Positions 3,711 through 8,184 of a stretch of DNA of 8,184 nt are shown here, in pieces. The number at the start of each line of letters is the position of its first letter. Within the stretch, counting starts at the first letter, position 1. A program made the position numbers and the translations under genes. Source of the stretch: a virus. Its lineage: Duplodnaviria; Heunggongvirae; Uroviricota; Caudoviricetes. A model generated the notes under the pieces. That model was not told where the DNA came from, did not search any database, and saw only the letters and a program-made list of their open reading frames with translations. The stretch lies in IMG/VR virus record IMGVR_UViG_2617270945_000004; one strand, written 5' to 3'.

Positions 3711-3740
3711 TTGAAATAATCACATTGATTAGATGAATAT
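3711..3740 (+). promoter_or_regulatory. Candidate sigma70 promoter for the porin gene (TTGAAA-18-GAATAT) within an AT-rich upstream region
   Basis: ttgaaa at 3711-3716 and gaatat at 3735-3740, about 50 nt upstream of the porin ATG; the surrounding 3400-3790 is strongly AT-rich. Hexamer match only, no experimental basis. Confidence 0.25.
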
Positions 3741-3792
3741 TTATCGCGCAGTGACATCATTTTTTAATAATAGTTCAAAAAAAGGGCTCACG

Positions 3793-4875
3793 ATGAAAAA
3801 ATTAACAGTGGCAATTTCTGCTGTAGCTGCATCAGTACTGATGGCGATGTCTGCTCAGGCAGCTGAAATTTATAATAAAGACAGTAACAAGCTGGATCTG
3901 TACGGGAAAGTTAATGCTAAGCACTACTTCTCCTCTAATGATGCAGATGATGGTGATACTACTTATGCCCGTCTTGGCTTCAAAGGTGAAACCCAAATCA
4001 ACGATCAACTGACTGGTTTCGGTCAGTGGGAATATGAATTCAAAGGCAACCGCGCTGAATCTCAAGGTTCCTCCAAAGATAAAACCCGTCTTGCCTTCGC
4101 TGGCCTGAAATTCGGTGACTACGGCTCCATCGATTATGGCCGTAACTACGGTGTAGCATACGATATTGGTGCATGGACCGACGTTCTGCCAGAATTCGGT
4201 GGCGATACCTGGACCCAAACAGATGTATTCATGACTGGTCGCACCACAGGTGTTGCAACTTATCGTAACAATGACTTCTTTGGTCTGGTTGATGGTCTGA
4301 ACTTTGCTGCTCAGTATCAGGGTAAAAATGACCGCACTGACGTAACTGAAGCTAATGGTGATGGTTTCGGTTTCTCCACTACTTATGAGTATGAAGGATT
4401 CGGTGTAGGTGCAACCTATGCTAAATCTGACCGCACTAATAATCAGGTTATCTACGGTAACAACAGCCTGAATGCATCTGGTCAAAATGCTGAAGTATGG
4501 GCAGCTGGTCTGAAATATGATGCGAACAACATCTATCTGGCTACCACCTATTCTGAAACCCAGAACATGACTGTTTTTGGTAATAACCATATTGCCAACA
4601 AAGCACAAAACTTCGAAGTAGTTGCACAATATCAGTTCGACTTCGGTCTGCGTCCGTCCGTTGCTTACCTGCAATCTAAAGGAAAAGACTTGGGTGCGTG
4701 GGGTGATCAGGACCTGGTTGAATATATTGATGTAGGTGCAACCTATTACTTCAACAAAAATATGTCCACTTTTGTTGATTACAAAATCAACCTGATTGAT
4801 AAGAGCGATTTCACGAAAGCATCTGGCGTTGCTACCGATGATATCGTTGCTGTAGGTATGGTTTACCAGTTCTAA
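3793..4875 (+). CDS. nmpC: General-diffusion outer-membrane porin of the OmpC/OmpF/PhoE family, phage-borne NmpC/Lc type (360-aa precursor)
   Basis: ORF track 3733..4875. The likely true start is ATG 3793 ([23 protein letters not shown] signal peptide; aaaggg RBS). Mature N-terminus [17 protein letters not shown], the motif [18 protein letters not shown] and the C-terminal ...VAVGMVYQF (terminal Phe) are hallmarks of enterobacterial 16-strand porins. Confidence 0.9.
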
Positions 4876-6482: not shown

Positions 6483-6937
6483 TACGCCTCCTGTTTGTCG
6501 CGGAGCTGCTGGAACTCGCAGCTCTGCGGAATAGTCAGGTGGCGGCCAATATTCACCGCCCAGGCTTCAACCTTACACAGGAAGATATACATCTCTCCGG
6601 TATCAAGATCGGAGGTATGGCGTAACGACTGGATAGTAGTGATTTCGCCGGTTACGACATCAACCAGGTCCTTGGTTTCATAACCGAGGTATGTGTGTTT
6701 GAGAGCATCTTTTACCCATGCTGCGGTAGCGAACGATTTCCCCCTGCTGATGAGGTATTCACTGATTTCGCTGTACCACATGTGGCTGAGTGCATTCTGG
6801 GAAAGACTGCGTTTCTCACGCCACGGTTTAAGCACCATGCGAAAGCATTTTCCGTCCTCCAGATAAGGCTGGATCTGCTGGCCGATAGCGGTGAAGTTAC
6901 CGCGATGCAGTTTGATGCCATCTTGTGGTAGGTTCAC
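6482..6937 (-). CDS. ybcN: YbcN-like nin-region protein (151 aa), GTG start
   Basis: 151 aa, [55 protein letters not shown]... The initiation codon is GTG (plus-strand cac at 6935-6937), preceded by GGAGG with 6-nt spacing. Confidence 0.75.
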
Positions 6938-7058
6938 GCTTCACCTCCGCAGAGGTCAGACGCTGGATGCAAAAAATCGCAGGTGCATTTCTGCATCTGT
7001 GAAGGGAGAAGAGAGTTTGGATTGTATGTGCGCATAAACGTCCCCGTTTAGCGCAGAA

Positions 7059-7096
7059 GTCACCGGAGTTGTTCAAGCTCCGATGACTTTATTATT
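7059..7096 (+). terminator. Terminator-like hairpin with T-tract on the plus strand, between the lipoprotein gene and ybcN
   Basis: gtcaccggag-ttgttcaag-ctccgatgac (9 of 10 bp pair) followed by tttattatt. No plus-strand gene is evident upstream of it, so its function is unclear. Confidence 0.25.
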
Positions 7097-7127
7097 ACGA
7101 ATTGATTTTACAAAATCAAAAGGTATG

Positions 7128-7580
7128 TTAGTGACGCGGGTCTGTTATTATGCGAGAAGGGTTTCCGTATAAAACAAGGACCTTACTTCCTTGAGTAAAT
7201 AACGGATCTTTGCCTTGAACAATGGTCATTAAATTCCCATTCTCAGTTTCGACAACATATTCCATGCCTGTTTGTTTTGTTGCTGAAGATTCGATTGCTG
7301 CCCCGGCAATACCACCAATGACTGCACCACCAACGGCACCAACGATATTAGAACGAACTCCCCCACCAAGCGCAGAACCAGCGGTTGCCCCCACGGCAGC
7401 CCCAGCAGTCCCGCCTAACGCGGAAGTCCCACTGATATCAACCCCCCTAGCACTAATAACTGTACCAGCGATAGTTCGATTAACCATGCCCACAGAGCCA
7501 ACAGAATAACTATTTGGCGATATATTTTGTGCGCATCCAACCAACACTAAGAGTGGAGCAATTACGAATAATCGCTTCAT
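7128..7580 (-). CDS. SlyB/Pcp-family outer-membrane lipoprotein with glycine-zipper domain (150-aa precursor)
   Basis: MKRLFVIAPLLVLVGCAQ...: signal peptide plus lipobox LVG-C. Central Gly/Ala-rich GxxxG-repeat segment (GGTAGAAVGATAGSALGGGVRSNIVGAVGGAVIGGIAGAAI). The C-terminal part (MEYVVETENGNLMTIVQGKDPLFTQGSKVLVLYGNPSRI) resembles the SlyB C-terminal beta region as I recall it. Confidence 0.7.
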   Translation of the reverse strand: MKRLFVIAPLLVLVGCAQNISPNSYSVGSVGMVNRTIAGTVISARGVDISGTSALGGTAGAAVGATAGSALGGGVRSNIVGAVGGAVIGGIAGAAIESSATKQTGMEYVVETENGNLMTIVQGKDPLFTQGSKVLVLYGNPSRIITDPRH

Positions 7581-7689
7581 TTAGCTACCCTAACAGGAAA
7601 CATTGGACGAGAAAGATCAACACTTTCTAATGCTTGCAAGAACTGCGTTATGTTGTTTTGCACCGCGCGATTAACAGATTCGCGTGCTC

Positions 7690-8184
7690 GGTAATGACTC
7701 CAACTTATTGATAGTGTTTTATGTTCAGATAATGCCCGATGACTTTGTCATGCAGCTCCACCGATTTTGAGAACGACAGCGACTTCCGTCCCAGCCGTGC
7801 CAGGTGCTGCCTCAGATTCAGGTTATGCCGCTCAATTCGCTGCGTATATCGCTTGCTGATTACGTGCAGCTTTCCCTTCAGGCGGGATTCATACAGCGGC
7901 CAGCCATCCGTCATCCATATCACCACGTCAAAGGGTGACAGCAGGCTCATAAGACGCCCCAGCGTCGCCATAGTGCGTTCACCGAATACGTGCGCAACAA
8001 CCGTCTTCCGGAGCCTGTCATACGCGTAAAACAGCCAGCGCTGGCGCGATTTAGCCCCGACATAGCCCCACTGTTCGTCCATTTCCGCGCAGACGATGAC
8101 GTCACTGCCCGGCTGTATGCGCGAGGTTACCGACTGCGGCCTGAGTTTTTTAAGTGACGTAAAATCGTGTTGAGGCCAACGCCC
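7690..8184 (-). mobile_element. IS1: IS1 insertion sequence, 3' portion (remainder outside window), inverted relative to the left copy; IRR-type terminus at 7690-7707 faces inward
   Basis: 7690 onward reads ggtaatgactccaacttattgatagtgttttatgttcagataatgcccgatgac..., the IS1 end as I recall it, continuing to the window edge. It encodes an InsB identical to the left copy on the minus strand. Confidence 0.93.
7705..8184 (-). CDS. insB: IS1 transposase InsB reading frame, C-terminal part (partial, 5' end outside window)
   Basis: ORF track 7705..8082 (125 aa from an internal Met, identical to 85..462). The frame stays open to 8184, reading ...[18 protein letters not shown]..., consistent with the InsB N-terminal region. 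Confidence 0.9.

Follow-up and report, generated by a model that had tools for sequence, protein, structure and literature searches.

A SlyB-like glycine-zipper lipoprotein gene beside IS1 is the second gene of a two-lipoprotein operon in DLP12-like prophages

Introduction

How does a gene for a SlyB-like lipoprotein come to lie directly beside an IS1 element in a DLP12-like prophage segment, and does it belong to the phage or to the bacterial chromosome? The question is raised by an 8,184-nucleotide stretch of Caudoviricetes DNA (IMG/VR record IMGVR_UViG_2617270945_000004), which we refer to in its full length as the window. The Escherichia coli protein SlyB (Pcp; PDB 7ojf/7ojg) is an outer-membrane lipoprotein that is induced by PhoPQ and contains a glycine-zipper 2TM hairpin. 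A preliminary description of the window took the gene for a second, horizontally carried SlyB copy, proposed that IS1 may have replaced or altered its promoter, and considered both prophage cargo and flanking host DNA as its origin.

Here we find that positions 7128-7580 of the window are the intact second gene of a two-lipoprotein operon that occupies the ren-ylcH/ninB slot of DLP12-like prophages. Searches of the literature on SlyB, glycine zippers, prophages and morons, and with the accession and PHROG identifiers, turned up no published account of the cassette. The orf6 and orf10 genes of PMC7724020 are other genes, and PMC12502783, which merely cites the SlyB paper, does not describe the cassette.

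Results

A distant relative of SlyB

The region between ybcN and the end of the window contains the following features, all on the minus strand:

6934-7035, minus strand: ylcH homologue of 33 amino acids, part of the prophage backbone, directly upstream of ybcN (88% identical to K-12 YlcH)
7036-7127, minus strand: spacer 3' of the SlyB-like gene (alignment with K-12; RNA fold)
7128-7580, minus strand: SlyB-like lipoprotein gene, an intact open reading frame of 150 amino acids with ATG start, stop included
7290-7430, minus strand: glycine-zipper helical hairpin of the SlyB-like protein, residues 51-97 (AF2 secondary structure, GxxxG counts, sub-threshold Pfam matches)
7533-7580, minus strand: signal peptide and lipobox of the SlyB-like protein, residues 1-16 (read from the sequence)
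7577-7689, minus strand: 3' remnant of a partner lipoprotein gene, comprising two bases of codon 150, codons 151-186 and the stop (identity to the intact locus)
7690-8184, minus strand: IS1, running off the window (open reading frame list, sequence, inverted repeat, IS1 annotations under the matches)

The translation in the open reading frame list begins MKRLFVIAPLLVLVGC... and contains the lipobox L13-V14-G15-C16 in the context LLVLVGC16-A-Q. Cys16 is invariant in an alignment of 30 relatives, and the alanine at position +2 leads us to expect an outer-membrane destination. The stretch from residue 51 to 97 equals the SlyB hairpin in its numbers of GxxxG (seven) and small-xxx-small (18) motifs. 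In a phmmer search of the sequences in the PDB, residues 2-149 align with residues 3-155 of E. coli SlyB (7ojf) at an E-value of 1.3e-14, and a profile built from the 30 relatives matches SlyB at 6e-15; the BLASTP identity between the two proteins is 33%. The AF2 model, of moderate reliability (pLDDT 66.9), predicts a strand (36-50), two helices (55-71 and 75-101) and C-terminal strands (102-146). With this model Foldseek returned SlyB (7ojf_A) as the sole significant match in the PDB (E 3.3e-8, TM 0.54-0.57). The lipobox, the GxxxG zipper and the likeness to SlyB noted in the preliminary description are thus borne out by both sequence and predicted fold.

The Pfam glycine-zipper models PF05433 (Rick_17kDa_Anti; 21.1 bits against a gathering cut-off of 24.2) and PF13488 (16.9 bits against 25) match residues 55-103 below threshold; the case for homology is made by the direct alignment with SlyB. 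Among NCBIfam models nothing exceeds threshold, the YiaD model reaching merely E 0.074, and the PHROG match is to phrog_13877, a family with no assigned function. The possibility of a spurious open reading frame was rejected: an identical protein is listed in 12,761 blocks of an assembly collection, and hundreds of homologues at 63-77% identity occur in gamma-, beta- and alpha-proteobacteria. On sequence grounds, the protein is a genuine but distant member of the SlyB family and belongs to a separate, large and tight clade.

The resemblance to SlyB extends over the whole chain. The two proteins are of similar length (150 and 155 residues), align end to end, and share the order of lipobox, beta-strand, two-helix glycine-zipper hairpin and C-terminal beta-domain, with an equal number of GxxxG motifs. 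They differ in sequence and in genetic setting: SlyB is encoded by a monocistronic gene, whereas the SlyB-like gene follows another in a two-gene operon, is carried by phages in E. coli, has no PhoP box that we could find, and scores below the PF05433 threshold. A scan for PhoP boxes in an E. coli locus with the intact cassette (L001) gave matches no better than chance, and none upstream of the first gene.

A further difference concerns lipid binding. In SlyB, residues I65, V69 and F73 are reported to be needed for phospholipid binding and function (bioRxiv 10.64898/2026.06.08.730324). This triad aligns with T58, A62 and T66 of the SlyB-like protein and is therefore absent, subject to some uncertainty in the alignment register, as the helix is rich in glycine; across the clade the three columns contain T/A/G, A/L and V/T/A. 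Relative to SlyB, hydrophobicity in the clade is shifted from helix 1 to helix 2. The missing triad argues against labelling the protein simply as a second SlyB and suggests that any cargo or lipid it may enclose probably differs from that of SlyB. The idea of a second SlyB copy needs refining: this is a separate clade at 33% identity, with a seemingly obligate partner and without the phospholipid residues.

The protein is also distinct from other recently described relatives. Yersinia slyB paralogues are 62-67% identical to SlyB and hence far closer to it than the protein studied here (bioRxiv 10.64898/2026.06.08.730324). SlyB and YfgH have been described as ring-forming outer-membrane stabilizers (bioRxiv 10.64898/2025.12.22.696046; 10.64898/2026.06.08.730324), and YfgH, OsmB and YiaD have been proposed to act as stress-specific outer-membrane stabilizers (bioRxiv 10.64898/2025.12.22.696046). 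The last three resemble the SlyB-like protein as lipoproteins with a GxxxG-rich helical segment, but have no significant sequence match to it. We know of none that is paired with an LptE-fold protein such as the one described below.

A truncated partner gene upstream

Positions 1-477 and 7690-8166 of the window are perfect inverted repeats, corresponding to two copies of IS1. The right-hand copy consequently begins at 7690, and the gap to the start codon (7581-7689) is exactly 109 bp, as first described. The insB-proximal inverted-repeat end of this IS1 abuts the gap directly. These 109 bp are not an intergenic promoter region; they are a gene remnant, containing the last 36 codons of a partner gene whose TGA stop overlaps the ATG of the SlyB-like gene by 4 bp (ATGA).

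In L001 the partner gene is intact (12638-13198) and encodes a 186-residue lipoprotein that starts MKKIILLAMIIGSLTGCAS... and matches phrog_12521, a PHROG family with no assigned function. No Pfam family matches any of 37 members of the partner family, which give at most sub-threshold signal-peptide or lipobox matches, and the family profile finds no relative among PDB sequences. Database entries label the protein as a UDP-N-acetylglucosamine acyltransferase or as a member of the YajG family. These labels are not supported by family models, and given the results with Pfam and PDB sequences we regard both as weakly founded. For YajG in particular, none of the 37 members matches PF03923, and PRK11627 aligns (E 0.17) with the signal peptide only; a direct comparison with E. 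coli YajG gave an hhalign probability of 74% (E 2.8e-5) and 26% identity by BLASTP (E 2e-4).

The predicted structure places the partner with the LptE/PqiC/PelC-like two-layer alpha/beta sandwiches. The fold comparison gave the following values:

DUF330 protein XCC0632: 13.6
PelC: 10.5
LptE: 9.9
PqiC: 9.6
CsgG: 9.2
TraT: 7.1

The partner is set apart from lipoproteins of the LptE, PqiC (DUF330), PelC, CsgG-N and YajG types by its lack of a Pfam family or a PDB sequence match, and by conserved residues that are its own. The most conserved of these fall in the segments ARPDE-KG, RARES-NR-QNNI-FLQALE and KPMFP.

Conservation of the gene pair

With the partner as bait, the SlyB-like gene was found immediately downstream in 57 of 62 loci from species-representative bacterial genomes and in 34 of 39 viral contigs, or 91 of 101 loci when pooled. 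In enterobacterial copies the two genes overlap by 4 bp, as in E. coli. This adjacency and the overlap suggest that the two proteins depend on each other. A search for a third conserved neighbour found shadow open reading frames and lineage-specific neighbours only. The pairing is not absolute, as Budvicia, Brachymonas and Massilia horti have the partner alone. In Photorhabdus (L048, 6001-8049) a partner without a SlyB-like gene lies beside an apparent CRISPR repeat array.

The adjacency is kept across Proteobacteria and in three different positions within unrelated temperate phages. Apart from the slot in lambdoid prophages, one position is seen in a siphovirus contig that is Pantoea-like (L101), where the tape measure gene and minor tail genes flank the module, and another in a provirus of high GC content (L104), where cI/cII-like genes are its neighbours. 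The majority of copies reside on chromosomes, in ordinary surroundings outside any phage, and those of Stenotrophomonas share their synteny. A Stenotrophomonas-like module also appears in a locus titled Nocardiopsis yanglingensis (L030), an actinomycete; this is likely to be assembly contamination. In Edaphovirga cremea (L004, 5444-6453) the module is chromosomal, with gene 1 split into open reading frames of 60 and 125 amino acids, and lies between a lipid A acyltransferase gene (lpxP-like) and fis/dusB. A 2026 preprint places a different Yersinia slyB paralogue in this same hot spot.

Phage cargo in a variable prophage slot

Over positions 6940-7689, up to the end of IS1, the window matches 280 complete E. 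coli genomes with 100% identity. The 1.5-kb cassette occurs in these 280 of 5426 genomes (5%), always on the chromosome, and is contiguous in 274. Within E. coli it is always internal to lambdoid prophages, which occupy different sites: L001 lies at argU/fimZ and L002 beside ybhC. In ten further contexts the gene order is ren or recombination-gene remnants, a 63-residue reverse open reading frame, the 186-residue partner gene and the 150-residue SlyB-like gene, followed by ylcH, ybcN, ninE, ybcO, rusA and Q, while immunity regions and late cargo vary. The sequenced phage PhiR30_1 has the same arrangement.

In DLP12 of K-12 the corresponding slot contains emrE-ylcJ-ybcK-ybcL-ybcM. The right edge of the slot lies near 7119, about 8 bp past the stop of the SlyB-like gene, where the window becomes homologous to DLP12 again. 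The original observation that the gene departs from DLP12 at this point is correct for the content of the slot, but ylcH, which had been counted among the displaced genes, is still present at 6934-7035; its counterparts in L001 and L002 bear the label hypothetical protein. The GC content of the cassette (32-42%) is lower than that of its flanks (50-56%).

Synteny, internal position in prophages, presence in 5% of genomes and the arrangement in PhiR30_1 together settle the question of origin left by the preliminary description: judged by its genomic contexts, the cassette is phage cargo in the variable ren-ylcH/ninB slot and not flanking host DNA. Like the lambdoid morons (bor, lom and the emrE-ybcM genes of DLP12), it is a discrete, AT-rich insert that encodes envelope proteins, occupies a fixed slot in the backbone and is variably present; it differs in that an independent promoter and terminator and expression in the lysogen are putative. 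In L001 a promoter-like sequence (GTGATA-16-TATAAT) precedes gene 1 by 30 bp, although such sites are not found above chance. A role as a component of the lysis cassette was rejected on two grounds: the gene maps to the early-right region, and copies of it are also present on chromosomes where no phage is involved.

Several other elements of the segment were observed. The 63-residue open reading frame separates ren from gene 1 and runs opposite to the cassette (L001 13455-13643, plus strand; L003 7996-8187, minus strand). Its product is very hydrophobic, has an annotation in PhiR30_1 (XSB42264) and gave no match to Pfam or PHROG families; the frame may be part of the cargo insert. Between the cassette and ybcN, the minus-strand backbone RNA of positions 6966-7089 folds unusually stably, with a z-score of -5.3. 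It includes a 12-bp GC-rich hairpin (7057-7089) and, within ylcH, a second, terminator-like one that has a U-run (6978-6995). This folded region is conserved in K-12 DLP12 and occupies the position of lambda tR2. Elsewhere in the window, an NmpC/OmpD-type prophage porin gene (3733-4875, plus strand) appears uninterrupted, unlike the porin gene of K-12 DLP12, which is split by IS5.

The IS1 insertion and the state of the operon

IS1 sits after the first base of codon 150 of the partner gene. Residues 1-149, including the signal peptide, are lost, as is a 250-bp AT-rich region upstream of the gene. The suggestion that IS1 replaced or altered the promoter is accordingly right in that the native upstream region is gone; the 109 bp that remain are the tail of the partner gene, and the insertion cut off residues 1-149 as well.

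A promoter scan of positions 6900-7800 found no minus-strand sigma-70-like site between IS1 and the ATG, nor anywhere in 7581-7800, and no terminator-like site was found between insB' of IS1 and the SlyB-like gene. Because insB' (7705-8082, minus strand) is co-directional with the SlyB-like gene, we infer that read-through from IS1 is the only plausible source of transcription. The SlyB-like gene itself shows no decay: its DNA is 100% identical to that of intact copies, and its Shine-Dalgarno sequence (AGGG, 7 nt before the ATG) is retained. With the 5' end of the operon lost and the partner missing, the module in the window is probably weakly expressed and functionally impaired, although the gene might still be expressed and useful.

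The right-hand IS1 junction is absent from the 5426 complete E. coli genomes and from metagenome contigs, and the whole two-IS1 arrangement is likewise absent from those genomes. This suggests that the DNA stems from a source rich in IS1, perhaps a Shigella-like one. Both insB-proximal IS1 ends face the 7212-bp DLP12-like segment, which runs from ybcW to the SlyB-like gene, an arrangement that resembles a composite transposon.

Discussion

We consider it likely that the two lipoproteins form a phage-cargo operon whose products build an outer-membrane assembly that alters the envelope of the lysogen, and that in the window this operon has been cut by IS1 and impaired. The SlyB-like protein would be sorted to the outer membrane by the Lol pathway and anchored there by its N-terminal lipid. 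By analogy with SlyB, its glycine-zipper hairpin may insert into the outer membrane and form rings. Rings of SlyB itself surround lipids and outer-membrane proteins. With the phospholipid triad missing, the ring of the SlyB-like protein would probably enclose a different cargo or lipid, and the SlyB-type nanodomain mechanism may not apply here.

Structural relatives of the LptE-fold partner form rings or plugs beneath the outer membrane. By analogy, the partner and the SlyB-like protein probably form one assembly at the inner face of this membrane, a physical interaction suggested by gene adjacency only. Temperate phages may carry the pair to alter the envelope of the lysogen, most likely in its robustness and possibly in the accessibility of surface receptors. 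In the window, the insertion at 7690 removed the AT-rich upstream region together with codons 1-149 of gene 1 and left the SlyB-like gene with its Shine-Dalgarno sequence, without its partner, and with read-through from the co-directional IS1 as its sole plausible route of transcription.

Other readings of the locus deserve consideration. It is conceivable, though unlikely, that the pair serves superinfection or surface exclusion or serum resistance: its outer-membrane ring would shield a receptor porin, sequester it, or stand as a physical barrier to incoming phage, pili or complement. Parallels would be Cor and Llp among phage lipoproteins and the plasmid protein TraT. However, neither cassette protein matches any PADLOC defence model, the model of the SlyB-like protein shows no significant similarity to TraT (Foldseek E 0.07), and many LptE-fold proteins score above TraT in the comparison with the partner. 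The module is also found mostly in chromosomal, non-phage loci, with conserved synteny in Stenotrophomonas, and such ordinary chromosomal copies argue for a general role in the envelope.

Rather less probable is that the gene acts by itself as an extra, autonomous SlyB, a stress-induced outer-membrane stabilizer transcribed from a new promoter or by read-through from IS1. The intact reading frame, identical to functional-looking copies, the retained ribosome-binding site and the co-directional insB' without an intervening terminator-like site would all permit this. Against it stand the position of the gene directly downstream of the partner in nine-tenths of the loci (91/101) and its overlap with it in enterobacteria, the lack of a sigma-70-like promoter on the minus strand of 7581-7800, and the PhoP-box scan, which did not rise above chance even where the cassette is intact. 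The missing phospholipid triad and the low identity to SlyB likewise speak against a stand-alone SlyB function.

We are more doubtful still about a specific variant of exclusion, in which the two proteins together would be a split, TraT-like alpha-helical outer-membrane ring, a phage-portable exclusion or complement-resistance device that cages a receptor or caps the membrane. TraT, the lipoprotein for surface exclusion and serum resistance in F-like plasmids, combines an LptE-like core and two transmembrane alpha-helices in one ring-forming chain (PMC12658005). The cassette is comparable in that it is borne by a mobile element, encodes outer-membrane lipoproteins and jointly supplies both building blocks. 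It differs from TraT in distributing them over two separate genes, and has neither a sequence match nor, as noted above, a significant fold match to it.

That the gene is a conserved host gene at a prophage-chromosome boundary is negligible as an explanation and refuted for E. coli: homologous pairs are chromosomal in other genera such as Edaphovirga and Stenotrophomonas, but the E. coli cassette always lies inside lambdoid prophages, flanked by ren (or what is left of recombination genes) on one side and ylcH-ybcN on the other, at different attachment sites, in a sequenced phage genome and in only one in twenty E. coli genomes.

We return to the two-lipoprotein envelope operon as the preferred reading. 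For annotation, the message is that the SlyB-like gene in the window should be read as the remaining half of an operon that IS1 has cut. Homology to SlyB is in itself unsurprising; what is new is a widespread SlyB-family clade with a conserved partner of LptE-like fold, without the phospholipid residues, and mobilized by temperate phages. Should the two proteins act as one assembly, the SlyB principle would reach beyond single proteins to two-component systems, and Bor/Iss, Lom and the prophage porins would be joined by a new class of phage-borne, envelope-modifying cargo. The two-lipoprotein module is thus a concrete and testable lead for outer-membrane biology and for lysogenic conversion.
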